A stretch of 64,000 nucleotides of DNA, from positions 21,154-85,153 of the forward strand of contig JBBTSI010000003.1 in NCBI GenBank assembly GCA_038064735.1. Reading direction: 5' to 3'. The notes under the pieces were generated by a model. It ran no database searches. It was not told where the DNA came from and saw only the letters and a list, made by a program, of their open reading frames with translations. How positions within the stretch are numbered: position 1 is the first letter of the stretch; every line of letters begins with the position of its first letter. A program made the translations under genes and the position numbers. The stretch comes from Patescibacteria group bacterium. GTDB taxonomy: Bacteria > Patescibacteriota > Minisyncoccia > Phycocordibacterales > WO2-35-19. Below, piece after piece: positions 10,276 to 60,367 of the stretch.

Positions 10276-11544
10276 ATGAAAAATAAGGTGAAAATTAAAA
10301 AAACCCAGCCTTCGCATAAAGCTACGGCGGGCAAAGATAGGGTATTTTTGGACTATGCATCTGTGACGCCGGTTGATTTGGGTGTAGAAAAAGAAATGCA
10401 GAGGGTTCAAAAGCAATTTTGGGCAAATCCTTCATCCTTGCACAAGGAAGGGGAAGAGGCTAAAAATATTTTGGAAGAATCTAGGACAAAAATTGCCCGA
10501 ATTTTGCATTGCCGTAGTAGTGAAATATTTTTTACAAGCGGGGGTACCGAATCTTTAAATTTGGCTATTTTGGGTGTGGTCAAAAGAAGCCAAAGGGCGT
10601 CTTTACCGCATATAATAGTTTCAACAATAGAACATCCGGCTGTTTTGGAACCAATAAAAAATTTACTTAAAGAAAAAGTGATTGAAGTTTCTTTTATTAC
10701 ACCAAACGAGAAGGGAATAATTAGCCCAGAATCTGTCAAAAAAGAAATGAAAGAAAATACTGTTTTGGTCGTTGTTCAGCATGCTAATAATGAAATAGGA
10801 ACTATCCAACCAATAAGAGAAATTTCAAAAGCTATTAAAAATTTCAAAGAATCAGAAATGGCAAAATTGCAAAAAGCTGCGGATAAATCCCGCTTTTTGA
10901 ATTTTGCCATTTCTGATTCTCAGACTGCTCCATATCTGTTGGTAGATGCGTGTCAGAGTGTTTTGTATGAAGATGTTTCGTTAGAAAGACTCGGCGCTGA
11001 TATCTTAGTTTTGGATGGTATTAAAATGTATGGGCCAAGAGGTGTTGGCGTTTTAGCGGTAAAGCATGGCACCAAAATTTCTCCCATAACTTTTGGCGGG
11101 GGACAGGAGAATGGTTTCAGGCCGGGAACAGAAAATGTGATTGGAGTAGCTGGTTTCGCCAAAGCTTTGGAAATTTCTGTCAAAATGATGGAGAAAGAAT
11201 CAAAACGACTTTTGCAATTATGCGATTATGCTATTTCTAAAATTTTGGAAATACCAAATTCTTCTTTGAATGGCAATAAAGAAAATAGATTACCTAATAA
11301 TATTAATGTTTGTTTTTCCAATCAAGATTCGGAATTTTTGGTTATCAAATTGGATACTCTGGGTTTTGCTGTTTCGGCCGCTTCAGCTTGTCATACTTTG
11401 TCACTTGAAAACGGCTCTTATGTTATTGAGTCTATCGGCAAACCGGAATGTTCAGGTTCTTCTTTGCGTATCACTCTAGGTAGAGACACCAAAAAATCAG
11501 ATTTAGATAAATTTATAGTTGCTCTTAAAAAAATACTTTGTTAA
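10276..11544 (+). CDS. cysteine desulfurase (class V aminotransferase, IscS/NifS family) carrying an in-frame palindromic insertion
   Basis: FLDYASVTPVD, TSGGTESLNLAI, IEHPAVLEP and the active-site region SAASACHT; 25-aa insert KESEMAKLQKAADKSRFLNFAISDS encoded by the palindrome at 10849..10919. Confidence 0.85.
   Translation: MKNKVKIKKTQPSHKATAGKDRVFLDYASVTPVDLGVEKEMQRVQKQFWANPSSLHKEGEEAKNILEESRTKIARILHCRSSEIFFTSGGTESLNLAILGVVKRSQRASLPHIIVSTIEHPAVLEPIKNLLKEKVIEVSFITPNEKGIISPESVKKEMKENTVLVVVQHANNEIGTIQPIREISKAIKNFKESEMAKLQKAADKSRFLNFAISDSQTAPYLLVDACQSVLYEDVSLERLGADILVLDGIKMYGPRGVGVLAVKHGTKISPITFGGGQENGFRPGTENVIGVAGFAKALEISVKMMEKESKRLLQLCDYAISKILEIPNSSLNGNKENRLPNNINVCFSNQDSEFLVIKLDTLGFAVSAASACHTLSLENGSYVIESIGKPECSGSSLRITLGRDTKKSDLDKFIVALKKILC
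10849..10919. repeat. 71-nt perfect palindromic element (family 1) inserted in-frame in the cysteine desulfurase gene
   Basis: gaatcagaaatggcaaaattgcaaaaagc / 14-nt loop / gctttttgaattttgccatttctgattc; second copy at 47326..47396. Confidence 0.85.
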
Positions 11545-15763: not shown

Positions 15764-15987
15764 ATTTTCTCCTCGCATACTTCTTAGGTATGCTATGGTT
15801 AGAGTTTACAAAGAAACTTATTCGAGATTCTTCATCCCAAATTCTGAATATATAATACATACTGTATCAATATTATCAAGTATTGTAACGGTTATTTATC
15901 AAACGCCTAAACGACAGATGTCGTTTAGGCGTTCTTTGATTACTAGCATAAAATGGGAATTTTTGTTAAACTTCTTTGGTTAATATT

Positions 15988-26197: not shown

Positions 26198-28393
26198 CTA
26201 TACTTTTCTTTTTCTGCCAAAGGTGCGTTTTTTCTTTTCTTCTGCCAAAATTTCTAGAGCGCGGGGCAGCTCAATAGTATAAACATCATCTGTTTTGAGC
26301 GAGCGGAAATCTTTTTGGTGGACTATGTAAGGGCCAAATCTGCCGATATTGGCACTTATCATTTCTCCAGTTATCGGGTGTTTACCTAATTCTCTAGGTA
26401 GACTCAAATATTTGATGGCTTCAGTCAGAGTGACTTCGCTTGGATTTTTTTCTTTTGGAATACTGGAACGGCGTGGTTTTTTATTTTTTTCATCTTTTAC
26501 ACCGAGTTGGACATAAGGGCCAAACCGGCCATCCATTACGAAGACTGGAAGTCCACTAGTCGGGTCTTCACCTATCGCTTCCGCCTCTTTGATTTCGGAA
26601 CCGTCAATATTTCTCATGCCTTTGCAATTTGGGAATTTTTCGCAACTCAAAAATTTACCTCCTCGTCCGAGTTTTATGATCATGCTTGCACCGCAAACTG
26701 GGCATTTGAGTTTGGGATCGGCGTCCCCAAGAGTTGTTAGTTTGGCGGTCTTTTCTTTTTCTTTGACGTCTTTGGAAAAGGGTTTGTAAAATTCCCTCAG
26801 TGTTGGCTCATACTCTCTTTCTCCATTTGCGATTTGGTCCAACTCATCTTCCATTTCGGCGGTGAAAGTGTCGCTGATATAATCTTTAAAATTATCTTCC
26901 AAAAAAGTGGAAACCACATCGCCGGTGTCAGTTGGTTTGAGAGTCCGGCCATCTTTTTCTACATAACCTCTTTCTATAATAGTGCCAATAATGGAAGCAT
27001 AAGTAGAAGGCCTACCGATACCACGTTTTTCCAACTCTTTGATGAGGCCAGCTTCGCTGTAGCGGTTTGGTGGTTCAGTTTGTTTTTCTTCATTATTTAA
27101 ATTAAGAAGAGAGAGTGGCTCTGAGGCTTTGACCCTGGGTAAAATAACATCTTCACCTTTAGCTGCTGGGTCTGCCAAAAGCCAACCTTCAGATATAACT
27201 CTTGAACCAGTAGCAGAAAAATTTGGAATGTTGCCAACGTCGGACATCGGCAAAATTTTGGTGATTATTTTGGTACGCATCATGAGAGCATCTTGCATCT
27301 GGCTAGCGATAGCTTTTTGCCAAATCAATCTATACAATTCTTTTTGATCGTCAGTGGTACCGCAATTTTCTTTATCAAAATGAGTTGGGCGGATAGCTTC
27401 ATGAGCTTCTTGAGCGTTTTTGGATTTGGTTTTATAAGTTCGAAATTGATGCAATGTGTTGCCATATTTTTTCTCCACCACACCTTTTATCTGCTCCAAA
27501 GCTACCTGAGCCATATTCAAACTATCAGTACGCATATAAGTGATGTGACCAGCTTCATAAAGTTTTTGGGCGGTCATCATGGTACGCTTCGGTGAAAAGC
27601 CTAAGCGAGTCGAAGCTGATTGCTGGAGAGTTGAAGTGGTGAAAGGTGGTTTGGGTGCTCTCTTGACTTCAGTCTCCGTCACATCTTTCACTGTCCAATG
27701 GGCATCTTTGGCGATGTTGTAAATCTCATCAGCTTCTTTTTTGGTTTTCGGTTCTTCTTCGCAAAAAGCTGTAAATTTTTCTTTTTTGCCTGTTTCCAAT
27801 TCTGCGGAAATTACGAAATAAGTCTCTGGCTTAAAAGCTCTGATCTCTCTTTCTTTTTCCATAATGATACGCAAAGCGGGGGACTGGACTCTACCAGCAG
27901 AAAGTCCGTATCGCACTTTTTTCCAAATCAAACCAGAGAGATCATAACCTACCAGTCTATCCAAAACCCTTCTGGCCTCTTGAGCCTTTCTCAAATTTTG
28001 GTCTATCTTGCGCGGATGCTTTAGCGCTTCTTCAATAGCCTCTTTGGTAATCTCATGATAAGTCACTCTTTTAATATCTTTATTTTTTTTCTTTCCGTCA
28101 GAAATTAATTCAGCCAAGTGCCAAGCGATAGCCTCACCTTCACGGTCGGGGTCGGTAGCGAGCAGTATTTCATCAGCTTTCTCTGCTAACTTTTTTATAT
28201 CAGCTACGACATGTTCTTTGCCTTTGGAAATTTCATAATGCGGAATAAAACCACCTTCTATATCAATGGCTTTTTTGTTGGATTTTGGCAAGTCGCGCAC
28301 ATGCCCGACGCTTGCCACCACTTCATATGCATCGCCAATATATTTTCCGATGGTCTTGGCTTTGGCTGGTGATTCTACAATTAATAATTTCAT
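26198..28393 (-). CDS. topA: DNA topoisomerase I
   Basis: Toprim N-terminus LLIVESPAKAKTI, DPDREGEAIAWH, topo IA core, C-terminal zinc ribbon CPVCGASM...CEKFPNC. Confidence 0.9.
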   Translation of the reverse strand: MKLLIVESPAKAKTIGKYIGDAYEVVASVGHVRDLPKSNKKAIDIEGGFIPHYEISKGKEHVVADIKKLAEKADEILLATDPDREGEAIAWHLAELISDGKKKNKDIKRVTYHEITKEAIEEALKHPRKIDQNLRKAQEARRVLDRLVGYDLSGLIWKKVRYGLSAGRVQSPALRIIMEKEREIRAFKPETYFVISAELETGKKEKFTAFCEEEPKTKKEADEIYNIAKDAHWTVKDVTETEVKRAPKPPFTTSTLQQSASTRLGFSPKRTMMTAQKLYEAGHITYMRTDSLNMAQVALEQIKGVVEKKYGNTLHQFRTYKTKSKNAQEAHEAIRPTHFDKENCGTTDDQKELYRLIWQKAIASQMQDALMMRTKIITKILPMSDVGNIPNFSATGSRVISEGWLLADPAAKGEDVILPRVKASEPLSLLNLNNEEKQTEPPNRYSEAGLIKELEKRGIGRPSTYASIIGTIIERGYVEKDGRTLKPTDTGDVVSTFLEDNFKDYISDTFTAEMEDELDQIANGEREYEPTLREFYKPFSKDVKEKEKTAKLTTLGDADPKLKCPVCGASMIIKLGRGGKFLSCEKFPNCKGMRNIDGSEIKEAEAIGEDPTSGLPVFVMDGRFGPYVQLGVKDEKNKKPRRSSIPKEKNPSEVTLTEAIKYLSLPRELGKHPITGEMISANIGRFGPYIVHQKDFRSLKTDDVYTIELPRALEILAEEKKKRTFGRKRKV

Positions 28394-28456
28394 CCCGTTA
28401 GAAGTTTATATAATTAATAATTTGTTATTTTTGATTCCCGTGACTTCTAACGGGAT
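28392..28456. repeat. inverted-repeat element ATCCCGTTAGAAGT...ACTTCTAACGGGAT abutting the topA start codon
   Basis: 14-bp perfect arms separated by 37 nt; the arm ends at the topA ATG; related copies at 29625..29694 and 42006..42085. Confidence 0.7.
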
Positions 28457-28731
28457 TCATATATAAGTACAGAATAAGTTATAAAAATAAAAAAAGCAAA
28501 AACGAGTCTGCAAATAGTCGCCAAAGCAACTGAGATGCAGACTCGCTGTTTCAGAGAGTCTTCGGTCATCACCAATCTTTCTTGCCTCCTGGAAAAACTA
28601 AAATCCAACAATCCACAAGAAAAACAAATGCTATTGTAACTATAAGCCAAAGCAAGTCTACTACTGTAGCCATAGCTTATCCTCCTCTGTCTTTAATAAT
28701 AACACAAATATAGTTATTTGTTTAATTGTGT

Positions 28732-29613
28732 TTAAGAAAGCCTTATTTCACCAAGGGTTTCGCGGATGAGACCTTTGAGTTCGAGGAGCGAGAGGAGAGT
28801 TTGGGTTTCGCCTATGGAGATTTGGTGTCTGTTTTGAGCTTGGCGAAGTATTTCATCACGAGGTAGAGGTTCTATTAAAAGTCTTATAATTAACATTTCT
28901 TTTTCCGAACAATCAAAATATTTTTCCTCATCATCCTCATCTTCACCTCCAATTTTTTCTAAATGTAACGCTTCCAAAATATCATCACTGTCGCGGATCG
29001 GTGTGGCACCAAGTCTGATAAGCATATGTGGACCAGAACTTGTGGTATTGAAAATACTGCCAGGCAGTGCGAGGACATCCCTATTGTATTCTGTAGCTAG
29101 ACGAGAGGTGATAAGGGTACCGGATTTTTTCTCGGCTTCTATCACCAATGTGGCGTGGCTCATACCGGCCATGATACGGTTTCTTTGTGGAAAGCTGTAA
29201 TGAGTGGCTTTGAATTCAGGTTCAAATTCATTCATAAGCATGCCGCCTTTTTCTACGATTTCTTGCGCAAGACGAGTATGAGATTGAGGATGTAAAACTT
29301 CGAGTGATAGGCCAGAACCGGGCACAGAAATAGTAGTCAGATTATTTTTAAGAGCGGCTCGGTGTGCAATAGAATCAATACCCAAAGCTAATCCAGAGAC
29401 AATGGTTATAGGGTAGCCGCGTAAACCTTCGATAAAAGTTTCTACTGCGTCTTTACCGTAATTTGTATATTTGCGGGCGCCGACTACGCAAAGCAATTTG
29501 TTTTTCCAATCAGGAATGGTACCTGCATAGAATAACGTTTTTGGCAGTTGTTTGATTTCTTCTAAAAGCGGCGGCCAGTTTTTGCGTTCAAGTTTTTGAA
29601 TTTTGTAACTCAT
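28732..29613 (-). CDS. dprA: DNA processing protein DprA (Smf)
   Basis: Rossmann-like DprA core LLCVVGARKYTNYG...VSGLALGIDSIAHRAAL...PQRNRIMAGMS. Confidence 0.8.
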   Translation of the reverse strand: MSYKIQKLERKNWPPLLEEIKQLPKTLFYAGTIPDWKNKLLCVVGARKYTNYGKDAVETFIEGLRGYPITIVSGLALGIDSIAHRAALKNNLTTISVPGSGLSLEVLHPQSHTRLAQEIVEKGGMLMNEFEPEFKATHYSFPQRNRIMAGMSHATLVIEAEKKSGTLITSRLATEYNRDVLALPGSIFNTTSSGPHMLIRLGATPIRDSDDILEALHLEKIGGEDEDDEEKYFDCSEKEMLIIRLLIEPLPRDEILRQAQNRHQISIGETQTLLSLLELKGLIRETLGEIRLS

Positions 29614-29624
29614 TTTTGTTGTTG

Positions 29625-29694
29625 TTAACCCCGTTAGAAGTCAGATGCAAAGCATCTGCTGAAGTTAATAACTTCAGACTTCTAACGGGGTTAA
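29625..29694. repeat. inverted-repeat element TTAACCCCGTTAGAAGTC...GACTTCTAACGGGGTTAA between divergent dprA and serS
   Basis: 18-bp perfect arms enclosing two internal hairpins (agatgc/gcatct and ctgaagtt/aacttcag). Confidence 0.7.
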
Positions 29695-29726
29695 CATTTA
29701 TTTTAACAAATGGTAGAATAAAAGAC

Positions 29727-31001
29727 ATGTTGGATATCAAATTTATAAGAGAAAATGCCGAATTGGTCGCCGATGGTGCTAAAAAAAAGCATATTGATTT
29801 TGATGTACAAAAACTCATTGAAGTTGATGATAAAAGAAAGATATTGAGTCAGAAACTTGAAGAAAAGAGAGCCAAACAAAATGAGGTTAGTATCGAAGTG
29901 GCCAAGTTGGGACAAGCCGGTAATATTGCCGAAAAAAGAAAACTCATAGAAGAAATGCAACCTCTCAAAGAGCAGATGCAAAAATTGGAAGAAGAGTTGA
30001 AAGAGGTGATGGCTGAGTGGCAAAAACTAATGGTGGCGGTGCCGAATATTCCTGATATGTCAGTACCGGATGGTGATACCGATAAAGATAATAAAGAAAT
30101 TAAAGTTTGGGGAGAAATTCCAAAATTTAGTTTTGCGCCCAAAGATCATATTGAACTTATGACAAATCTCGGGATGCTCGATCTTAATCGTGGTGCTAAA
30201 GTAGCCGGTTTTCGTGGATACTTTTTGACCGGTGATGGAGCAAGATTACAGTTTGCTCTTTGGCAATTCGTTAATGATTTTTTTAATAAAAAAGGAGGAT
30301 TTATTTCAATGATCGTACCATCGCTTGTCCGTCGAGAGCCGTTTATTGGCACAGGATATTTACCACAAGGCGAAGAGGATTTATATAAAACCCAAGATGG
30401 TGAATATCTATCGGGTACAGCTGAAGTGGCGATGATGAGTTATTTTATGGATGAGGTTTTAGACAAAAAAGATTTGCCAAAAAAAATGTTTGGATTTTCC
30501 AATGCATATCGCCGTGAAGCTGGGGCACACGGTAAAGATACAAAGGGCATCTTGCGTGTACATGAGTTTTATAAATTTGAGCAGGTGGTTTTATGCGAGG
30601 CTAGTCATGAAATCTCGGTTAAATATCATGAAGAAATTCAGGCAAATACGGAAGAAATTATGCAAGCTCTTAAGATACCATATCATGTGGTAATAAATTG
30701 TGCCGGTGATTTGGGTCTGGGCCAGGTTAAAAAATATGATATTGAAGCTTGGTTGCCTTCTGAGAATACATATCGAGAGACTGGATCAGCATCTTATTTT
30801 CATGATTTTCAGACTCGTCGTTTAAATATTCGCTATCGTGATGAAGACGGAAAAATGAAATTTGTCCATTCTTTAAACAACACCGCTCTTTCTGGCAGAC
30901 CTCTTATAATGATTGTAGAAAACAATCAGCAAGCCGATGGCTCTATCGTTATTCCTGAAGTACTCCGACCTTATATGGGAGGGAAAGAAAAAATAGGGTA
31001 A
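29727..31001 (+). CDS. serS: serine--tRNA ligase
   Basis: Start at MLDIKFIREN; N-terminal coiled coil and class II core (motif 2 FRREAG, motif 3 GSALS.R). Confidence 0.9.
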   Translation: MLDIKFIRENAELVADGAKKKHIDFDVQKLIEVDDKRKILSQKLEEKRAKQNEVSIEVAKLGQAGNIAEKRKLIEEMQPLKEQMQKLEEELKEVMAEWQKLMVAVPNIPDMSVPDGDTDKDNKEIKVWGEIPKFSFAPKDHIELMTNLGMLDLNRGAKVAGFRGYFLTGDGARLQFALWQFVNDFFNKKGGFISMIVPSLVRREPFIGTGYLPQGEEDLYKTQDGEYLSGTAEVAMMSYFMDEVLDKKDLPKKMFGFSNAYRREAGAHGKDTKGILRVHEFYKFEQVVLCEASHEISVKYHEEIQANTEEIMQALKIPYHVVINCAGDLGLGQVKKYDIEAWLPSENTYRETGSASYFHDFQTRRLNIRYRDEDGKMKFVHSLNNTALSGRPLIMIVENNQQADGSIVIPEVLRPYMGGKEKIG

Positions 31002-37900: not shown

Positions 37901-38554
37901 TTAATCAAAAGTGTCAAAGATGCCCTTTGACACTATCCTTTTGTAAAGTTTTGTGTTTTCATTTATAAAATTTTTTGTGTTGCCAAATATTTCAGTTAAG
38001 AATTGTTTATGAATTATTTTATTTTTTCTATTGCTTATAAAATCAACATAGCTACTCCATTTGTATTTTTCAGGTTTATCGATAAAACCATCTTTAATTG
38101 GATTCATATGTATATAAGAAGAAATCAGCATAAGTTGCGGATTTGTTTCGATTTGGACAGATTTAAATTGATCTTGGAAAACATGGCCAACTCTTTTGTA
38201 TTTAAGATTTATGTATTTTGCAAAACTGGTAAATACTCTGGACATAAGTTTTGAAATTGATTCATCACCGCACTGCTCTATCAATAGGTGAATATGGTTT
38301 GGCATTAAACAAAAAGCATGAAGTTTAAAATTTTCTGGTTTTAAACTAGTGATCCTTATCCTTGATTTAGGGGATTTGGTTATTTCGCATTCATTCAAAT
38401 CTTTAATATCAAATCCAAGACCTAATCCTAATCTAAAAAGAAAAGTTCTGTAATCTTGTTCATCTCTGAATATTATTTCTTTATTATCACCACGATTATA
38501 GATGTGGTGAATAGAATCTTTGGTGAAATTTTTATAATCTCTATTTCTTCCCAT
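37901..38554 (-). CDS. Y1 HUH transposase, IS200/RAYT-like
   Basis: HUH motif CLMPNHIHLLIE and catalytic-Tyr region SSYIHMNPIKDG; start at ATG 38554 (MGRNRD) with TGTGGTATAAT 7 nt upstream. Confidence 0.7.
   Translation of the reverse strand: MGRNRDYKNFTKDSIHHIYNRGDNKEIIFRDEQDYRTFLFRLGLGLGFDIKDLNECEITKSPKSRIRITSLKPENFKLHAFCLMPNHIHLLIEQCGDESISKLMSRVFTSFAKYINLKYKRVGHVFQDQFKSVQIETNPQLMLISSYIHMNPIKDGFIDKPEKYKWSSYVDFISNRKNKIIHKQFLTEIFGNTKNFINENTKLYKRIVSKGIFDTFD
37911..37933. repeat. 23-nt perfect palindrome GTGTCAAAGATGCCCTTTGACAC (REP-like), copy a
   Basis: Within the 3' codons of the transposase gene and 35 nt upstream of the hydrogenase small-subunit ATG. Confidence 0.8.
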
Positions 38555-38577
38555 ATTAAAATTATACCACAAGTAAA

Positions 38578-38600
38578 ATGTCAAAGGGCATCTTTGACAT
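38578..38600. repeat. 23-nt perfect palindrome ATGTCAAAGGGCATCTTTGACAT (REP-like), copy b, centre inverted
   Basis: Between the hypothetical gene stop and the transposase start. Confidence 0.8.
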
Positions 38601-41220: not shown

Positions 41221-42015
41221 ATGGCAGAATTAAATTTATCTACAAAAGCAAAAATAACATGGTGTCCAGGGTGTCCAAACTCGCAGATTTTGGTGGCTTT
41301 CAGAAAAGCCGTGACTGAGATGGTAGAGAATGGTTCACTCAAGATTGAAAATTTGGTGGCTTTTGCTGGTATTGGATGTCACGGTAAAATTTCTGATTAT
41401 ATAAATGTCAACACTTTCACTTCACTTCACGGCAGACTTATCCCAGCTATGACAGGTAGCAAATGCGCTAATCCAAATCTTAATGTTATAGGTTTTTCTG
41501 GTGATGGTGATTCTTTGGATGAAGGTATAGAGCACCTCATTCATGCTGCTAAAAGGAATTCGGATATAACTTTGTTTATGCATGACAACAGAGTTTTTGC
41601 TTTGACGACCGGCCAGTTTGATGCTCTCAGTCCCAAAGGTTTTAAAGGTAAATCTTCTCCGTTTGGTAGTATTGAAGAACCATTAAATCCACTTTTACTT
41701 TTGCTTTCTGCTGGGGCTACTTTTATTGCTAGGACTTATGCTGGTGATATTGCCGGTACTAAAAAAATAATGCAGGCCGCTATGAACCACAAAGGTTTTG
41801 CTTTTGTCGACATTATCCAACCTTGTATCACTTTTTTTGATACTCGTGATTATTTTAAAGATAAGATTTATTGGATGGATGAAGGTTTACCCAAAAATGA
41901 TTTGAAATTTTCTATAGAAAAAGTTTCTGAAAATCAAAATGAAAAAGTACCTTTAGGAATATTTTATCAAGTCGAAAGATCAACTTTTGAAGAAGAATTA
42001 TATAAATCCCGTTAG
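41221..42015 (+). CDS. korB: 2-oxoacid:ferredoxin oxidoreductase beta subunit (TPP-binding)
   Basis: CPGCPN, GIGCHGK and GDGDSLDEG (TPP/Mg motif). Confidence 0.8.
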   Translation: MAELNLSTKAKITWCPGCPNSQILVAFRKAVTEMVENGSLKIENLVAFAGIGCHGKISDYINVNTFTSLHGRLIPAMTGSKCANPNLNVIGFSGDGDSLDEGIEHLIHAAKRNSDITLFMHDNRVFALTTGQFDALSPKGFKGKSSPFGSIEEPLNPLLLLLSAGATFIARTYAGDIAGTKKIMQAAMNHKGFAFVDIIQPCITFFDTRDYFKDKIYWMDEGLPKNDLKFSIEKVSENQNEKVPLGIFYQVERSTFEEELYKSR

Positions 42016-42085
42016 AAATACCAAATTATGTTCATTATGCAAAAAAATTATTGTCGATTATTAAAAGTTAGATTTCTAACGGGAT
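42006..42085. repeat. inverted-repeat element ATCCCGTTAGAAAT...ATTTCTAACGGGAT between korB and the acd gene
   Basis: 14-bp perfect arms, 52-nt spacer; left arm contains the korB stop codon; right arm ends 7 nt before the next ATG. Confidence 0.7.
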
Positions 42086-42092
42086 AAATAAT

Positions 42093-44147
42093 ATGAATTT
42101 AGAAAATTTTTTTAATCCAAAATCAGTAGCGGTTATTGGTGCTTCATCTGACACTAAAAAAGTGGGTTTTGCTCTAATTTCAAATCTTTTGAAAAATAAT
42201 CCGCCAACTGATGGAAGAAAAATTTTCCCTGTTACTCTCTCAGAAAAAGAAATTTTAGGTATGGAGACTTTCTCTTCTATTTTAAATATTCCAGATCAGG
42301 TTGATTTGGCGATAATAGCTGTAAGAGCTGATATAGTACCCAATATTTTAGTCGAATGTAGTGAAAAACATGTTTCTAATGCAATAATAATTTCTTCTGG
42401 CTTTAAAGAAATGGGGATTAAAGGTAAAGAACTCGAAAACGAAATTTCAAAAATAGCTAAAGAAAAAAATATCACTCTTTTGGGACCAAACTGTCTCGGT
42501 GTTATCGATACGAAAAAAAATTTGAATGCTTCTTTCGGTGGTCGGCAACCGCTTCCAGGTAGTATTGCTTTCTTATCCCAATCCGGTGCGCTCGGTACTG
42601 CTCTTATAGATTGGTCTATAGATGAAGGTATCGGTTTTTCCAAAATCATAAGTTTGGGTAACGAAGCACAGCTTACCGAAATCGATTTTTTGGAATTTTT
42701 AGAAAATGATCCTGAAACTTCTGCAATTTTGATGTATTTGGAAAATATAAATGATGGACCGAAATTTTTGGAAACTGTAAAAAGAATTACCTTGAAGAAG
42801 CCTGTGGTTATAATAAAAGCAGGTATGGGTAATCATGGAAATTTGGCTGTCATGTCTCACACTGGAGCTTTGGCACCGCAACCTGCAGTGTTCATTTCTG
42901 CTTGTCGACAAGCGGGTGCTACTACTGTGTCATCAGTGCGGGGATTTTTTAATATTATTAAAATATTGTCTCAAATAGGATTTAAAAAAGATCCTATTCA
43001 ACATTTGATTATTTTGACAAATGGTGGTGGACCGTCTGTCGTTGCTGCTGATCTTATCGACCGTTCTCGTTCTCTATCTCTCGCAGTTTTTTCTGAAAAT
43101 ATTAAAGAGGAATTGCGCGCTACTTTACCTAAAATGGCTGCTATCGGGAATCCAGTTGATATTATAGGTGACGCTCTTGCAGACCGATATGACAAAGCCC
43201 TCGAAATTTTATGCAAAGCGGAAGATTGTGATGCAATCATGGTGATACTTACTCCTCAAATGATGACAGAAGCAGCAGAGACTGCGAAAGTACTTGCTAA
43301 GTATAAAGATAAAAAAATAATATTTCCGGTTTTTATAGGCGGAGAGGGGATACAAGCTGGACGCAATGAACTCATAAAATCTGGTTTGGTTCACTTTGTT
43401 TTCCCTAGAGATGTTATCGATAGTTTAGATTATTTGGCTCAAAGTTCTCCTAAACGCAAACCCAATTCCGGTCACCATAGCTTTGGACATCATGGTGAAC
43501 TTATGACTTCGGTAAGAAATGGAGAGATGATGGAATTTAAATCAACACTAGAATTACTTTCTCAATACAATATTTCTATTGAAGGCCGATTTTTAACTAG
43601 AAAAGAAGATTTAGGAAATGCTTTAAATTCACTCGGTAGCGGTCCTTATACAATGAAAGCGATTTCCAAAGAAGCGGTTCATAAAACCGAAACAGGAGCA
43701 GTTAAATTAAATATTTTAAGTGTAGATGAAGCCAACTGGATATGGGAAGATATGTGGACGAAAATTCCAAAAGTGGAGGGTATTATTGTTCAGAAAATGG
43801 AAAAAGGTAGGGAAATAATAATCGGTATGAAAAGAGACAACACTTTTGGTCCGACGATACTTTTTGGTTTGGGTGGGATTTTTGCCGAAGCAATAAAGGA
43901 TACAGTGCTACGTGTTGCCCCAATTGGAAAAATTGAGGCTCTAGAAATGATGCAAGAAATAAAGGGTATCAAAATTTTGCAAGGTCTGCGTGGCCAACCA
44001 CCAGTAAACTTTGAAATGCTGGCCGATATTCTCGTAAATCTCTCTAAACTTTCTCTTGATCATCCGGAAATAAAAGAAATTGACTTTAACCCTGTTATGG
44101 CTACTGAAAATTCCGCCATCATTGTGGATGTGAGGATAATGATTTGA
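42093..44147 (+). CDS. acetyl-CoA synthetase (ADP-forming), fused alpha-beta (NDP-forming acyl-CoA synthetase)
   Basis: CoA-binding N-terminus KSVAVIGAS, succinyl-CoA-synthetase-like flavodoxin domain, ATP-grasp C-terminal half. Confidence 0.8.
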   Translation: MNLENFFNPKSVAVIGASSDTKKVGFALISNLLKNNPPTDGRKIFPVTLSEKEILGMETFSSILNIPDQVDLAIIAVRADIVPNILVECSEKHVSNAIIISSGFKEMGIKGKELENEISKIAKEKNITLLGPNCLGVIDTKKNLNASFGGRQPLPGSIAFLSQSGALGTALIDWSIDEGIGFSKIISLGNEAQLTEIDFLEFLENDPETSAILMYLENINDGPKFLETVKRITLKKPVVIIKAGMGNHGNLAVMSHTGALAPQPAVFISACRQAGATTVSSVRGFFNIIKILSQIGFKKDPIQHLIILTNGGGPSVVAADLIDRSRSLSLAVFSENIKEELRATLPKMAAIGNPVDIIGDALADRYDKALEILCKAEDCDAIMVILTPQMMTEAAETAKVLAKYKDKKIIFPVFIGGEGIQAGRNELIKSGLVHFVFPRDVIDSLDYLAQSSPKRKPNSGHHSFGHHGELMTSVRNGEMMEFKSTLELLSQYNISIEGRFLTRKEDLGNALNSLGSGPYTMKAISKEAVHKTETGAVKLNILSVDEANWIWEDMWTKIPKVEGIIVQKMEKGREIIIGMKRDNTFGPTILFGLGGIFAEAIKDTVLRVAPIGKIEALEMMQEIKGIKILQGLRGQPPVNFEMLADILVNLSKLSLDHPEIKEIDFNPVMATENSAIIVDVRIMI

Positions 44148-45988: not shown

Positions 45989-46687
45989 TTATATACCAGG
46001 ACCAAAATATTTTTCACGATAGAAGCGGATGAGTTGTTCGACTTTGGGGACGAGGTCGGGGTGGCCGACGGCGACTTTGGTGCGTTTTTGGACATCGACT
46101 AAAGTGACAGCGCCTTCGAGGACGGCTTCTTCAATATCAGCTTCAGTGGTTTTGGTATCTGGGTCTAAAATTTGTTGACCATCGGTGACGATTCTTTTAA
46201 GCTGGCCGGTTTTTTTGAACCAATCATTGAGTGCGGCGCGGAGCGCTTTGTCGCCGAGGACCGAGCAATGGATTTTCCTATCTGGCAGACTGCCCAATCT
46301 TTTTATAATATCTTGCGGTCTGATTTGCAAAGCTTTGTCGATCTTCATACCACCCCCGCCCGAACGACTGTTCAGTCGGGCAGGTTTCTCGCCAATCATC
46401 ACAGAAAGCATCGAAGTGGTGGCGATAGCCGAAGCACAACCGAAAGTGCGCCATTTCATTTCTTTTATTCTATCCGTTTTCTTATCAATTTTAAGCCAAA
46501 TGCGCATCACATCTCCGCAAGCCGGTGAGCCGACGATACCCGAAGCATCATATTTGGCCTCTTTCGGATCTTCTAGAAGCAAGTTTCTGGGTTTGAAGAA
46601 GTGCTCTTTCACTTCTTTGGTGTAAACCCAAGAATTGCCAGTAAACTTATTAACCACGTCAGGTTTATTTTTTTTCATATAATTCAA
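45989..46687 (-). CDS. IscU/NifU-N-like Fe-S cluster scaffold with N- and C-terminal extensions
   Basis: Three scaffold cysteines: SPACGDV, RTFGCASAIA, HCSVLGD. Confidence 0.65.
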   Translation of the reverse strand: MNYMKKNKPDVVNKFTGNSWVYTKEVKEHFFKPRNLLLEDPKEAKYDASGIVGSPACGDVMRIWLKIDKKTDRIKEMKWRTFGCASAIATTSMLSVMIGEKPARLNSRSGGGGMKIDKALQIRPQDIIKRLGSLPDRKIHCSVLGDKALRAALNDWFKKTGQLKRIVTDGQQILDPDTKTTEADIEEAVLEGAVTLVDVQKRTKVAVGHPDLVPKVEQLIRFYREKYFGPGI

Positions 46688-47915
46688 AAGGGGAAATTTG
46701 TCTTAACCTCTTCACAACTTCCGGCAAATGCTTTAGCACATATTTAACATCTTCAGATGTGCTGTATTTACCCAAAGTGAAGCGCAGACTACCATGAATA
46801 TATTCGTATGGGTTGCCAAGTGCAGAAAGAATATAAGATGGCTCCAAACTTTGGGAATTGCAGGCACTACCGGTGGAGACCATTATACCAAGCTCGTCCA
46901 GATATAAAAGCAGAGCCTCGCCTTCCACATCCAAAATAGAAATATTGAGGAAATTTGGTAAGCGTTTGGCTGGGTGGCCATTCAAAATAACTTTGGGAAT
47001 AATTTTAAAAATACCTTTTTCTAAAGTGTCGCGAAGTTTTTTGATACGAGCGGTTTCTGTTTTTCTTTTTTTAGTGACTAACTCTAGTGCCTTGACGAAG
47101 CCAACAATGCCAGCGACATTTTCGGTACCACTACGCAATCTTTGCTGACCACCACCATAAATAATAGGGGAAATTTGGGTGCCCTTTTTCACATACAAAC
47201 CGCCGACACCTTTGGGTCCGTAAATTTTGTGAGAAGAAATAGTCATTAAATCTGCGCCAAGTTTCTCTACATCCAAATCCAAAAATTTTGCTGATTGGCT
47301 TGCGTCGGTATGAAGGTGGGGGAAAGAATCTGAAAAAGCAAAATTGCAAAAAGCTGCGGATAAATCCCGCTTTTTGAATTTTGCTTTTTCAGATTCTTTG
47401 AATTCCTTAATTATTTTCGAAATCTCTGCAATCGGTTGAATGGTGCCAGTCTCACTATCAGCCATAGTGATGGAAATTAAAATAGTTTTTGCATCCAATT
47501 CTTTTTTTAATACTTCCAAATCTACTAAGCCGTTTTTCAAAACCGGCAACCTTACAATTTTAAAATTATCCTTTTCTAAAGCATCGCAAGTTTTCAAAAC
47601 CGCTTTGTGTTCAATTTGGGTAGTTATGATTTTGCCCCCTTTTTCTTTATTAGCTTTGGCAACGCCAAGTATAGCCAGATTATCCGCTTCAGTAGCCGAA
47701 CCAGTAAATACAAATTCATCGGGTCGGCAATTTAAAATTTTGGCGATGGTTTTAGTTGATTTAGTGATAGCAAATTTAGATTTTTGGCCCAATCTATACA
47801 GACTCCCAGGATTACCAAAATCTTCCTTAAAATAAGGGAGCATCGCAGAGACGACCTGTTTGTCTACAGGAGTAGTCGCGGCATAATCAAAATACCTCTG
47901 CTTTTTCATGAGCAT
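46665..47915 (-). CDS. cysteine desulfurase (IscS/NifS family) carrying an in-frame palindromic insertion
   Basis: FDYAATTPVD, TGSATEADNLAI, SSHKIYGPKGVG (PLP Lys), STGSACNS (catalytic Cys); insert KESEKAKFKKRDLSAAFCNFAFSDS encoded by the palindrome at 47326..47396. Confidence 0.85.
   Translation of the reverse strand: MLMKKQRYFDYAATTPVDKQVVSAMLPYFKEDFGNPGSLYRLGQKSKFAITKSTKTIAKILNCRPDEFVFTGSATEADNLAILGVAKANKEKGGKIITTQIEHKAVLKTCDALEKDNFKIVRLPVLKNGLVDLEVLKKELDAKTILISITMADSETGTIQPIAEISKIIKEFKESEKAKFKKRDLSAAFCNFAFSDSFPHLHTDASQSAKFLDLDVEKLGADLMTISSHKIYGPKGVGGLYVKKGTQISPIIYGGGQQRLRSGTENVAGIVGFVKALELVTKKRKTETARIKKLRDTLEKGIFKIIPKVILNGHPAKRLPNFLNISILDVEGEALLLYLDELGIMVSTGSACNSQSLEPSYILSALGNPYEYIHGSLRFTLGKYSTSEDVKYVLKHLPEVVKRLRQISPFELYEKK
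47326..47396. repeat. 71-nt perfect palindromic element (family 1), second copy, in-frame in the second cysteine desulfurase
   Basis: Central 44 nt identical to the copy at 10849..10919; outer stem differs at 3 positions per arm, all compensatory. Confidence 0.85.
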
Positions 47916-48598: not shown

Positions 48599-48851
48599 AT
48601 AAAAATTATACCACACAACTTTGCTCCACTTGGTAGAGGATGTTATTGTATCCCGCCGTAGCTCTATAAGAGCGAAGGAGGAGAAATTGTTTTGAAAATT
48701 TTAAATAAAAAGCCACCGCTTGGTCGGTGGCATCGCAAATTGGTTATTGGGAGAAATGAATAAAAAAGAAAGGATATTTTTACATAATCAAGAACGGCTC
48801 AACGATATTTATCGTTGAGCCGTTCCACATGTTTACCAAATAATCACTAAG

Positions 48852-49158
48852 CTCCGCGGGTTGGATTCGAACCAACGACCAATCGCTTACATAGAATCTC
48901 CTATTACTAGAAGTATGGACTATATCATCCCCATGTCTTTTGATTTAGGGGCGAGGGGCTTCGAACGTGAAATAAACACGTCCTACTCCATAAAGGATAG
49001 TCTCTACACCTTCCCTGACTTTTGTCTGGGCTTGGCTCGGGATTGCCCGCTTTTTAAAGCTTGGGTTTCCCCGAATTCACCTCGTTTTTCATCCAAAATT
49101 TCTTTTGGAAGCTGCATTATAAATACAGGCGACTGCGCTACCGCTGCGCCACCGCGGA
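48852..49158 (-). tRNA. tRNA-Asn(GUU) interrupted by a 235-nt group I intron in the anticodon loop
   Basis: Exons: 5' UCCGCGGUGGCGCAGCGGUAGCGCAGUCGCCUGU (49158..49125), 3' UAAGCGAUUGGUCGUUGGUUCGAAUCCAACCCGCGGAG (48889..48852). Spliced anticodon loop CUGUUAA, U1-A72 and G73 as in E. coli tRNA-Asn. Confidence 0.7.
48890..49124 (-). mobile_element. group I intron, subgroup IC3-like (Azoarcus/Anabaena tRNA-intron type)
   Basis: P7 strands AGACUA / UAGUC; near-identical matches to the Azoarcus core: CGAGCCAAGC, GAAGGUGUAGAGACUA, GUGAAUUCGGGGAAACC. 5' splice site after U (U.G with IGS GCAG); last intron nt G. Confidence 0.75.
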
Positions 49159-58981: not shown

Positions 58982-59383
58982 TTATCTCGCAAGGTTTTTC
59001 TTTTCCGGATTTTCTAAATTTTTCCTCCAACCACCAAACATTTTACCGATTTCTTTCAATTTTTCTCCAATTTCTGCGTATTGTTTATGAGAAATTAGTT
59101 TACCTTCCCAAGTTATATGAATCAAAAATTTGATGGCGTCCAAATCTAAAATACACTGGTTTATCCTTTCTATTTTCTTATCTTTTTCGATAAAATAGGC
59201 TATATATGAAAGTTCCAGCAAATCCAAAAATTTATTCTCAATGCGAGCACCAATGCTGTGGCGTTGGCCTTTAGGCACATGATCAAGAATACTTACCCAA
59301 AGCAAATATGCCTCTTTGATGCGTTGAAGTATCGAGGCGTTAACGAGAGAGAGAGAGAGAGAGAGAGTAGAAAATTGCGCCAT
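58982..59383 (-). CDS. avd: Avd-like accessory protein (four-helix-bundle, 23S rRNA IVS-protein family)
   Basis: 133 aa; pattern ...HVPKGQRHSIGARIENKFLDLLELSYIAYF...YAEIGEKLKEIGKMFGGWRK typical of the TIGR02436/Avd family; N-terminus LSLSLSLS encoded by a (GA)n repeat. Confidence 0.6.
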   Translation of the reverse strand: MAQFSTLSLSLSLVNASILQRIKEAYLLWVSILDHVPKGQRHSIGARIENKFLDLLELSYIAYFIEKDKKIERINQCILDLDAIKFLIHITWEGKLISHKQYAEIGEKLKEIGKMFGGWRKNLENPEKKNLAR

Positions 59384-60367
59384 AAATATAACGATACCAT
59401 ATCAGTAGAAAATTTGCTCCACTCTTGGCAGGAATTTTTGTGTGGCAAGAAAAAACGCAAAGATGTAGCCGAATTTTTATTAAATTTTTCTGATAATATT
59501 TTTGATTTGCGTCAAGAACTCAAAAACAAAACTTACAAACACGGTGGATATCATGCTTTCAAAATAAATGACCCAAAACCAAGGAGTATTCATAAAGCTA
59601 GTGTCAGAGACAGACTTTTACACCATGTAATTTATAATGCTCTGTATCCGTATTTTGACCGGAAATTTATTTTTGATTCGTATTCTTGTAGGTTTGGGAA
59701 GGGGACACATAAGGCTATAAATCGTTTCAGAGAATTTGGCCGCAAAGTCTCAACAAATCATACTAAAACCTGTTGGGTATTGAAGTGTGATATCAGGAAG
59801 TTTTTTGCTAGTATTAATCATAATCTTTTGAAAGATATTCTTGATAAAAATATCAAAGACCCAGACATTTTTTGGCTACTTAATCAGGTTATAGATAGCT
59901 TTAATACAGAAAACAAAGTTGATGTCGGTTTGCCTCTCGGTAACCTTACAAGTCAGATTTTTGTAAACATTTATATGGACAAATTTGATCAGTTTATGAA
60001 AAGAGAAATCAAAGCCAAATATTATATAAGATACGCAGATGATTTTGTGATTTTAAGCGAAAACAAAAATTATCTTTTAAAACTTATACCTAAAATCGCT
60101 AGTTTTTTAGAAGAAAAATTAAAATTAGAATTGCACCCAAACAAACTTTTTGTTAAAACCTTATCTTCAGGGATTGATTTTCTGGGCTGGGTGCATTTTC
60201 CTAAGTATAGAGTTTTGAGAACTAGCACCAAAAATAGAATGTTTAGAAGACTAGCAGGGGAATTTAAAAAAGAAACAGGGGCTTCGTATTCAGGACTATT
60301 GAGTCATGGGAACGGGTTTAAGTTGGGGGAGAGAATTAAGTTGTTGCAAAAGCAAAATTTGGTATAA
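59258..60367 (+). CDS. DGR reverse transcriptase
   Basis: RT motifs: SYSCRFGKGTHKA, LKCDIRKFFASINH, GLPLGNLTSQIFVNIYM (DGR-specific SQ motif 4), YIRYADDFVIL (motif 5). True start uncertain; the listed ORF start overlaps avd in antisense. Confidence 0.8.
   Translation: MALAFRHMIKNTYPKQICLFDALKYRGVNERERERESRKLRHKYNDTISVENLLHSWQEFLCGKKKRKDVAEFLLNFSDNIFDLRQELKNKTYKHGGYHAFKINDPKPRSIHKASVRDRLLHHVIYNALYPYFDRKFIFDSYSCRFGKGTHKAINRFREFGRKVSTNHTKTCWVLKCDIRKFFASINHNLLKDILDKNIKDPDIFWLLNQVIDSFNTENKVDVGLPLGNLTSQIFVNIYMDKFDQFMKREIKAKYYIRYADDFVILSENKNYLLKLIPKIASFLEEKLKLELHPNKLFVKTLSSGIDFLGWVHFPKYRVLRTSTKNRMFRRLAGEFKKETGASYSGLLSHGNGFKLGERIKLLQKQNLV
59345..59365. repeat. (GA)10 dinucleotide microsatellite
   Basis: gagagagagagagagagagag inside the avd 5' coding region and the RT upstream frame. 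Confidence 0.9.

Follow-up and report, generated by a model that had tools for sequence, protein, structure and literature searches.

The 64-kb window analysed here, that is, the whole stretch of contig JBBTSI010000003.1 under study, belongs to a Patescibacteria metagenome-assembled genome (MAG) whose source habitat is Hainich groundwater. It contains three short palindromic elements, next to topA, between dprA and serS, and between korB and acd, which are very probably copies of a family of non-coding MITE-like elements (MITE, miniature inverted-repeat transposable element). As is typical of MITEs, the elements are short, bounded by terminal inverted repeats, flanked by target-site duplications, dispersed, and present in some genomes and absent from related ones. 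The three loci are insertions, since at each of them the uninterrupted site was found in close relatives. Thus, of the two readings offered by the original prediction, that of MITE-like terminal inverted repeats is supported by the 4-bp duplications, the empty sites at three of three loci, the dispersed copies, and the near-exclusive pairing of the arms. The elements and their duplications, to which no strand is assigned, are as follows:

28389..28392, left target-site duplication of copy 1, TTCA (TGAA on the topA strand)
28393..28455, element copy 1, 63 bp, termini T...A
28456..28459, right target-site duplication of copy 1, TTCA
29625..29628, left target-site duplication of copy 2, TTAA
29629..29690, element copy 2, 62 bp, termini C...G
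29691..29694, right target-site duplication of copy 2, TTAA
42003..42006, left target-site duplication of copy 3, TAAA
42007..42084, element copy 3, 78 bp, termini T...A
42085..42088, right target-site duplication of copy 3, TAAA

The exact 10-mers CCCGTTAGAA and TTCTAACGGG occur six times in the window, always in three inward-facing pairs and never unpaired. When one mismatch was allowed, nine matches were found, compared to 3.0 ± 1.8 in shuffled sequences, with none of 100 shuffles reaching nine; the three additional single-mismatch matches are scattered. Furthermore, a looser scan for pairs, with up to three mismatches in total, returned the same three pairs only, shuffles giving 0.1 pairs each. 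The exact and one-mismatch scans thus bear out the three inverted-repeat pairs that had been noticed in the original prediction. In copy 1, the core 10-mers (28394-28403 and 28445-28454) lie within perfect 14-nt arms (28392-28405 and 28443-28456), as they do in copy 3 (cores 42008-42017 and 42074-42083, arms 42006-42019 and 42072-42085); the arms of copy 2 (cores 29630-29639 and 29680-29689) reach 23 nt with 96% complementarity (29623-29645 and 29674-29696). The interiors of the three copies are mutually unrelated. That of copy 1 is AT rich and unstructured, the element reading CCCGTTAGAA-GTCACGGG-AT-rich-AAAC-TTCTAACGGG in the topA orientation, and that of copy 2 is made of two perfect hairpins, which are not nested, as had been proposed, and instead stand side by side inside the arms in a three-way junction.

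The empty sites, found in relatives whose DprA or KorB is 81 to 85% identical to that of the window, each contain one tetramer (TGAA, TTAA, and TAAA, respectively). In particular, the topA start of relative L132 reads ...cataATGAAGctt, with a single ATGAAG, and the window has tatATGAAT-element-ATGAAAtta; the dprA-serS site of relative L128 reads aaatGTTAATagt, with a single GTTAAT, and the window has aaatGTTAAC-element-GTTAACaac; the korB-acd site of relative L327, gaattatATAAATaatatgaatttagaaaa, is identical to what remains of the window when the element and one of the duplicates (ATAAAT) are taken out. Moreover, copy 2 is missing from most metagenomic relatives with a 75 to 89% identical DprA, and in relatives with an approximately 80% identical KorB the TAA of korB is followed by 1 nt and then by the ATG of acd. 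An independent insertion of the interior subfamily of copy 1 was observed in relative L131, where it adjoins the GTG start of dprA, a position that is empty in L128. Two assemblies contain the exact DprA of the source, and both have copy 2; the longer of the two has copy 1 as well.

The genes adjoining the three copies are the following:

26198..28393, minus strand, topA, DNA topoisomerase I, start codon adjoining copy 1
28732..29613, minus strand, dprA, with 16 nt between its ATG and the core of copy 2
29727..31001, plus strand, serS, ATG 37 nt from the core of copy 2
41221..42015, plus strand, korB/POR-beta, 2-oxoacid:ferredoxin oxidoreductase beta subunit, with two C-terminal residues (SR) added by the element
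42093..44147, plus strand, acd, ADP-forming acetyl-CoA synthetase, ATG 7 nt past the right arm of copy 3

This gene context agrees with the one originally described. At its end, the left arm of copy 1 overlaps with the ATG of topA (minus strand, 28393-28391), the start codon being made up of the left duplication (28389..28392) together with element base 28393, and on the same strand the right duplication provides a decoy upstream ATGAAT, which opens an 11-codon upstream open reading frame (ORF) with its stop inside the element. Copy 2 lies between the divergent dprA (start at 29613) and serS (start at 29727), upstream of serS and between the -10 region and the ATG of dprA. Copy 3 was inserted at the 1-nt junction between korB and acd, which are now separated by the element, and the korB stop codon TAG (42013-42015), together with the two extra codons that precede it, now comes from the left arm of the copy.

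Anatomy, genic copies, and distribution of the family

The counts given for the family rest on loci collected from other genomes with the pattern CCCGTTAGAA-N30-60-TTCTAACGGG, one genome being considered per prokaryotic species, which yielded at least 120 loci; the exact-arm copies analysed were 126 to 142 for the consensus, 142 for the flanking tetramers, and 143 for the distances from start codons. The exact 10-mers in 0.86 Mb number 293, of which 283 belong to pairs, and most of the others have a degenerate partner. The search of other genomes for the arm, which the original prediction had proposed, returned paired copies in many genomes, and the arms do co-occur as pairs.

The consensus can be written as TNNA, Y-CCCGTTAGAA-RT ... 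AY-TTCTAACGGG-R, TNNA, with terminal inverted repeats of 12 to 14 bp and a non-palindromic 14-nt consensus arm (AY-CCCGTTAGAA-RT). The flanking tetramers (positions -5 to -2 and +2 to +5) are identical in 80 of 142 copies, compared to 8.4, and at most 16, when partners were shuffled, and the central dinucleotides agree in the direct orientation in 70 to 73% of cases and in the inverted orientation in only 9 to 22%. In most tetramers the outer bases are T..A, with T..G and C..G being less common; 78 of 142 copies have T..A in both flanks, and nearly all have Y..R. The central dinucleotide is free, all 16 kinds occurring, and TTAA itself is rare. The element termini are complementary in 130 of 142 copies (C..G in 81, T..A in 49). 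A 6-bp duplication (RTNNAY) was considered and rejected: a match was seen in no more than 51% of cases at positions -6/+1 and 45% at -1/+6, and the empty sites of copy 1 and of the L131 copy contradict it. The duplication is thus of 4 bp, accompanied by complementary element termini.

The elements are 38 to 139 nt long (62 to 78 nt in the window), with an inter-arm spacing of 18 to 119 nt and length clusters at 51, 57, 60 to 66, and 76 to 78 nt; they are MITE sized and contain no transposase ORF. Their density is about one per 20 to 85 kb, and several copies may occur in one genome (three in the window, three in L027, and three in Omnitrophica UBA1562). The interiors are unrelated in most copies, essentially free in sequence and length, with a GC content that tracks that of the host (r = 0.45). 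About 17% of them, including that of copy 2, consist of two perfect hairpins in a three-way junction, and the others are unstructured. Interior subfamilies common to different genomes do exist; in particular, the hairpin module CAGACGCC-N3-GGCGTCTTAY is found in MAGs labelled Phycisphaerae, Yanofskybacteria, Patescibacteria, and Omnitrophica.

Some further observations concern individual copies. Extra arms inside the elements of L007, L017, L024, L051, L057, L081, L096, L102, and L116 are nested or tandem self-insertions of the family (for example, L102 894-1032 and L024 1139-1270), and a solo arm in L051 lies within an RND pump gene, with no transposase beside it. Two Planctomycetota species genomes have the same element at the same locus (L097 4877-4939 and L120 3652-3714), with near-identical flanks and interiors differing at 2 of 43 positions, which implies that some copies outlast speciation. 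In 428 kb of relatives chosen regardless of the arms, we found five real elements, two of which share the compensated arm variant CCCGTTAGAG...CTCTAACGGG (GAG/CTC) at different loci (L142 594-710 and L175 3918-4040); the compensated change on both ends points to an element sublineage with covarying ends.

Copies were also found inside genes. Within long ORFs there are 28, of which 26 have a length that is a multiple of 3 and are free of stop codons; lengths that are multiples of 3 are far less frequent elsewhere (47 of 114; Fisher P = 4e-7). These genic elements are 51 to 78 bp long and would add 17 to 26 residues, reading PVR[NSK]...[ITV]SNG from either strand, with only the terminal tripeptides constant. 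The host proteins are genuine (HolB, SecA, DnaE, UvrA, UvrC, GlyRS, GatB, and a HypE-like protein). In HolB, DnaE, UvrA, GatB, and the HypE-like protein, the Pfam domain match covers more residues of the protein than of the profile, the excess being roughly one insert length, and in UvrC the domain match is broken into two. The UvrA insert corresponds to an 18-residue gap with respect to the solved UvrA structure 9gxk and is absent from the best 120 homologues, among which an Omnitrophota UvrA, 62% identical, reads YELTAKIKLAKYK at the site. The possibility of a shared orthologous UvrA insertion, considered as a test of selection in place, was ruled out, the insert being lineage specific; likewise, the class II aminoacyl-tRNA synthetase of the window is not orthologous to the GlyRS host of L119 and could not serve for comparison with it. 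Since the UvrA insert is lineage specific and missing from homologues, the genic copies are young, lineage specific, and tolerated. The preserved frame and lack of stop codons point to ordinary read-through translation of the inserts rather than bypass.

The record labels among the matches listed include many Patescibacteria classes, Omnitrophota, Planctomycetota (Phycisphaerae, Pirellulales, and an anammox genus), Desulfobacterota, Nitrospirota/Thermodesulfovibrionia, KSB1, WOR-3, Ratteibacteria, and two "Gammaproteobacteria," with host GC contents ranging from 30 to 61%. Only five arm pairs were found in viral contigs, where single 14-mers are singletons at chance level. A literature search with the two 10-mers gave unrelated primer matches only, and no description of these elements was found in the searchable literature on MITEs and palindromic elements in these phyla. 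No Rfam family matched the elements at the gathering threshold or with an E value of 1 or less, the only hits being subthreshold ones to generic hairpin models of microRNA precursors.

Insertion mechanism and competing explanations

Of 143 copies, 38 directly adjoin (distance 0) the first codon of an ORF that is 100 codons or longer. Copies adjoin start codons because the element ends in A or G, so that insertion at a start codon, with duplication of a tetramer starting with TG, rebuilds ATG or GTG right after the right arm and leaves the ORF intact. The simplest reason for the over-representation of start codons and of tight stop-start junctions is that surviving insertions leave proteins intact. 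The copies that pass selection are those that rebuild a start, those at operon junctions, and those that are in frame and free of stops within genes; in the window, copy 1 rebuilt the topA start, copy 2 landed between the -10 region and the ATG of dprA, and copy 3 split korB from acd.

As for the enzyme, insertion takes place at a 4-bp target whose outer bases are complementary (usually TNNA, more rarely CNNG or TNNG) and duplicates it, and this type of duplication suggests a DDE-type transposase acting in trans with a 4-bp staggered cut. Judging by the ends and the target, a piggyBac/IS1380-like or an IS5-like enzyme would be the candidate.

Several points weigh against the MITE reading. An autonomous element with these ends was found neither in the 0.86 Mb surrounding 120 copies nor at contig ends or in viral contigs, and the neighbourhoods of the copies revealed no transposase. 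In particular, no arm pair at insertion-sequence distance occurs among the 293 arms, a single contig end lies just within an arm, and the extended-end pattern has no matches in viral contigs. Within the source population, no difference in presence or absence was seen between the two assemblies carrying the exact DprA, and no decayed relics above shuffle noise were detected in the unbiased 428-kb sample. The exact-arm set was gathered by requiring perfect arms, and the conservation of the arms within it is partly an effect of the collection; similarly, the occurrence of the same 14-bp ends in uncultivated bacteria of at least eight phyla follows the labels of the MAG records, that of L090 (Omnitrophota) being the sole one with indirect support. 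Moreover, unalignable interiors together with perfect ends within one genome are unusual for a neutrally decaying MITE family, and a purely selfish MITE model does not account for the missing relics, the arm variant with its compensated change (GAG/CTC), the polarity of the copies at starts described below, or the discrete length classes.

The RNA folding that the original prediction had proposed as a check showed that in all three copies of the window the arm stem forms with a stability well beyond that of shuffled sequences, with z scores of -4.2 for copy 1, -9.9 and -9.6 for copy 2 on either strand (folding free energy, -46 to -50 kcal/mol; z about -9.7), and -3.5 for copy 3. The predicted fold of copy 1 places the A and U from the AUG of topA in base pairs at the foot of the 14-bp stem, provided that the whole element is transcribed. 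Such very stable predicted stems and the pairing of the topA AUG make effects on expression plausible.

It is in this context that a mobile origin followed by co-option of the start-adjoining copies has to be weighed. These copies would provide an A-rich unstructured leader or an internal transcription start, with a gene-distal mini-hairpin that keeps the start accessible, and since the mini-hairpin would free the start codon by its distal position, orientation would be under selection. The copies abutting starts are indeed polar: the internal NCGGG, a degenerate right arm, is gene distal in 19 cases and gene proximal in 2 (P = 2e-4), and the gene-proximal third is more AT rich (68% versus 54%, P = 0.001), A making up 42% of its sense strand. 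Copy 1 and the L131 copy share the same orientation relative to their respective genes, and the essential topA, if its AUG is paired in a transcript of the whole element, needs some solution. However, close relatives lack elements upstream of the same genes, -10-like boxes show no orientation bias (17 versus 16 of 38 start-abutting copies), which also led us to reject a portable outward promoter as a general property of the elements, and purifying selection against the inhibitory orientation alone could yield the polarity with no gain of function. The polarity fits either selection against orientations with a local hairpin beside the start codon or a modest co-option, and we regard co-option as possible, though rather unlikely.

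With regard to translation starts in the lineage, the region about 30 nt upstream of the dprA start in L126 to L134 (locus position, approximately 3001) contains TGCTATAAT or TACAATAA about 10 nt before the ATG or GTG, and these dprA starts have no Shine-Dalgarno sequence. This geometry suggests that mRNAs in the lineage may be leaderless or nearly so. In the window, copy 2 separates the box corresponding to TGCTATAAT from the dprA ATG.

Perfect ends that occur without decayed relics could reflect selection on the arms in place. A more speculative extension, to which we give little weight, is that selection preserves the ends in place because they form the hairpin recognized by a conserved enzyme acting in trans, which would insert and seamlessly excise the elements in a piggyBac-like manner, the copies being reversible cassettes. 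The identical 14-nt ends under the different phylum labels would then be more than the trace left by a transposase that spreads horizontally. If this were true, in-frame peptides in essential proteins, as well as hairpins or leaders at start codons, would be removable, and the elements would constitute a phylum-crossing gene-modulation system in ultrasmall groundwater bacteria and the organisms they live with.

Much of the evidence already given bears on the other reading of the original prediction, namely, that the arms are RNA stems sequestering translation initiation regions, or, in a related form, operator pairs for a conserved DNA-binding protein, that control initiation at topA, dprA/serS, and acd. 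The stability of the stems reported above, the position of the elements 0 to 37 nt from start codons, and the conservation of the arm sequence in many taxa would agree with it. However, the orthologous loci of relatives lack the elements, and these empty sites largely refute it as the reason for their presence; the host genes are unrelated, the same element stands in frame within ORFs and at operon junctions elsewhere, the copies are flanked by target duplications and have no Rfam match, and an arm spacing of 18 to 119 nt does not fit a two-site operator. A cis-regulatory origin is therefore very improbable.

Equally hard to sustain is the hypothesis of elements of the repetitive extragenic palindromic (REP) type, or of their doublets known as REPINs, moved as single-stranded hairpins by a REP-associated tyrosine transposase (RAYT) or an IS200-like HUH (Y1) transposase such as that encoded by the ORF at 37901-38584 (minus strand). 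As in REPINs, palindromes that lie for the most part between genes combine conserved ends with spacers that vary, and a Y1/HUH-like ORF (motifs YHIYNRG, PNH[IF]HLL, and YIH.NP) occurs both in the window and in L129. Nevertheless, HUH single-strand transposition leaves no target duplication, and the existence of one in these elements argues against HUH or RAYT enzymes; furthermore, the 14-nt arms are non-palindromic, different from a REP hairpin with its GTAG-type head, HUH ORFs show no enrichment around the elements (1 per 0.86 Mb), and known REP sequences are lineage specific and not common to several phyla.

Least credible of all are sites for a tyrosine or serine recombinase, such as attC, or pairs of DNA uptake sequences (DUS) like those of Neisseria: the arm GTTAGAA/TTCTAAC does resemble the core sites GTTRRRY/RYYYAAC, a copy does adjoin dprA, and the 10-mer is alike at 7 of 10 positions to the Neisseria DUS GCCGTCTGAA, which often occurs as inverted pairs, but the order GTTAGAA ... 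TTCTAAC is the reverse of that in attC (RYYYAAC ... GTTRRRY), neither an integrase nor a cassette array accompanies the elements, whose neighbours are housekeeping genes, the flanking repeat differs between sites (16 central dinucleotides) whereas tyrosine recombinases need identical overlaps, and uptake sequences are mostly single and occur about once per kb, compared to about one element per 20 to 85 kb with nearly all arms paired.

Other features of the window

The ORF at 37901-38584 (minus strand) encodes an IS200/RAYT-like HUH (Y1) protein with the motifs HHIYNRG, PNHIHLL, and YIHMNP, and is presumably the transposase mentioned in the original prediction, which placed a distinct REP-like family near it. 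It is not flanked by CCCGTTAGAA arms and lies about 3.4 kb from the nearest copy. A similar HUH ORF follows dprA in L129 (3931-4566).

Two widely diverged Aminotran_5 (NifS/IscS-like) paralogues, at 10276-11544 (plus strand) and 46665-47915 (minus strand), align over their full length. Both have a near-perfect palindrome of about 75 nt, in frame and at a homologous position (10848-10920, KESEMAKLQKAADKSRFLNFAISDS; 47323-47399, KESEKAKFKKRDLSAAFCNFAFSDS); the arms differ by compensatory changes, and their 18-nt centres are reverse complements of each other. They look like a second, unrelated in-frame palindromic family or a flip-flopping cruciform.

A group I catalytic intron is located at 48897-49134 (minus strand; RF00028, 67 bits, full-length match), around which ARAGORN found no host tRNA, and the ORF at 59258-60367 (plus strand) contains a reverse transcriptase domain (RVT_1, E = 1.6e-24) and may be part of a diversity-generating retroelement, a retron, or a group II intron. 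Perfect palindromes with arms of 15 to 16 nt and 2-nt loops occur at 48792-48825 and 15902-15933 (GAACGGCTCAACGATA/TATCGTTGAGCCGTTC and AACGCCTAAACGACA/TGTCGTTTAGGCGTT), one being close to the group I intron and the other lying just upstream of a tRNA gene, and may represent a separate small repeat family.

Significance and relation to known systems

The MITE-like family described here is selfish DNA that looks active in the highly streamlined genomes of Patescibacteria and Omnitrophota, with in-frame inserts in SecA, DnaE, UvrA, and GatB, and in-frame palindromic inserts have so far been emblematic of Rickettsia. One 14-bp end in groundwater and sediment MAGs labelled as at least eight phyla suggests a marker of horizontal exchange in these communities, and the shared ends would imply a transposase with either a very conserved or a very promiscuous specificity. 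From a practical point of view, decoy ATGs, start hairpins of 60 to 80 nt, and inserts of 17 to 26 residues will mislead gene callers, start prediction, and protein alignments in these phyla. A small set of transposon ends, if it works in bacteria of candidate phyla, would offer a starting point for genetic tools, of which these organisms have none at present.

Among the systems to which the elements can be compared, piggyBac duplicates TTAA, target recognition requiring a T0-A3 hydrogen bond (PMC7351741), and IS1380 is its prokaryotic relative (PMC5718144). The likeness resides in a 4-bp duplication with complementary outer bases and in ends that begin with CCC and finish with GGG. The piggyBac end CCCTAGAAAG also resembles (C)CCCGTTAGAAA in a gapped comparison. 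Seamless excision of the piggyBac type would render in-gene copies reversible. However, the target here is TNNA (or CNNG) rather than strictly TTAA, no such transposase turned up, and the IS5 group, with its YTAR target, is an alternative.

REPINs, as moved by RAYT, have in common with our elements two conserved inverted units, a less conserved spacer, a long hairpin, and non-autonomous mobilisation in trans. They differ in that REPINs lack a target duplication, consist of units each of which is a hairpin in itself, and are lineage specific and co-inherited with the RAYT gene. The byp elements and T4 gene 60 also present a short hairpin-forming insert in a coding sequence between short direct repeats, but bypassed inserts need neither to be in frame nor to be free of stop codons, and 26 of the 28 genic copies considered here are both.

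Correia elements, found only in Neisseria, are 100 to 155 bp long, with 26-bp inverted repeats, a TA duplication, and a conserved interior, and are cotranscribed as stable hairpins (PMC10969869). Like them, our elements are short and non-coding, have terminal inverted repeats and a target duplication, and lie mostly just upstream of genes, with some within genes. Different from Correia elements, only the ends, of 12 to 14 bp, are conserved, the interior is free, the duplication is a 4-bp TNNA, the hosts carry the labels of at least eight phyla, and there is no known cognate insertion sequence.

Finally, Rickettsia palindromic elements (RPEs; Ogata et al. 2000) are presented in PMC10969869 as in-frame palindromic selfish DNA in unrelated housekeeping genes. 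They are about 100 to 150 bp long, have family-specific conserved peptides, and are confined to Rickettsia. The likeness to RPEs, which is one of description, lies in in-frame palindromes readable on either strand that add a short peptide and keep the ORF, whereas our genic elements measure 51 to 78 bp, about half the size of RPEs, with a clear 4-bp duplication and with hosts among Patescibacteria, Omnitrophota, Planctomycetota, and others. The features that stand out are the conservation of only about 14 bp per end across phylum labels, the unrelated interiors within one genome, and the lack of decayed copies, and the elements join the in-frame habit of RPEs to the gene-start habit of Correia elements.

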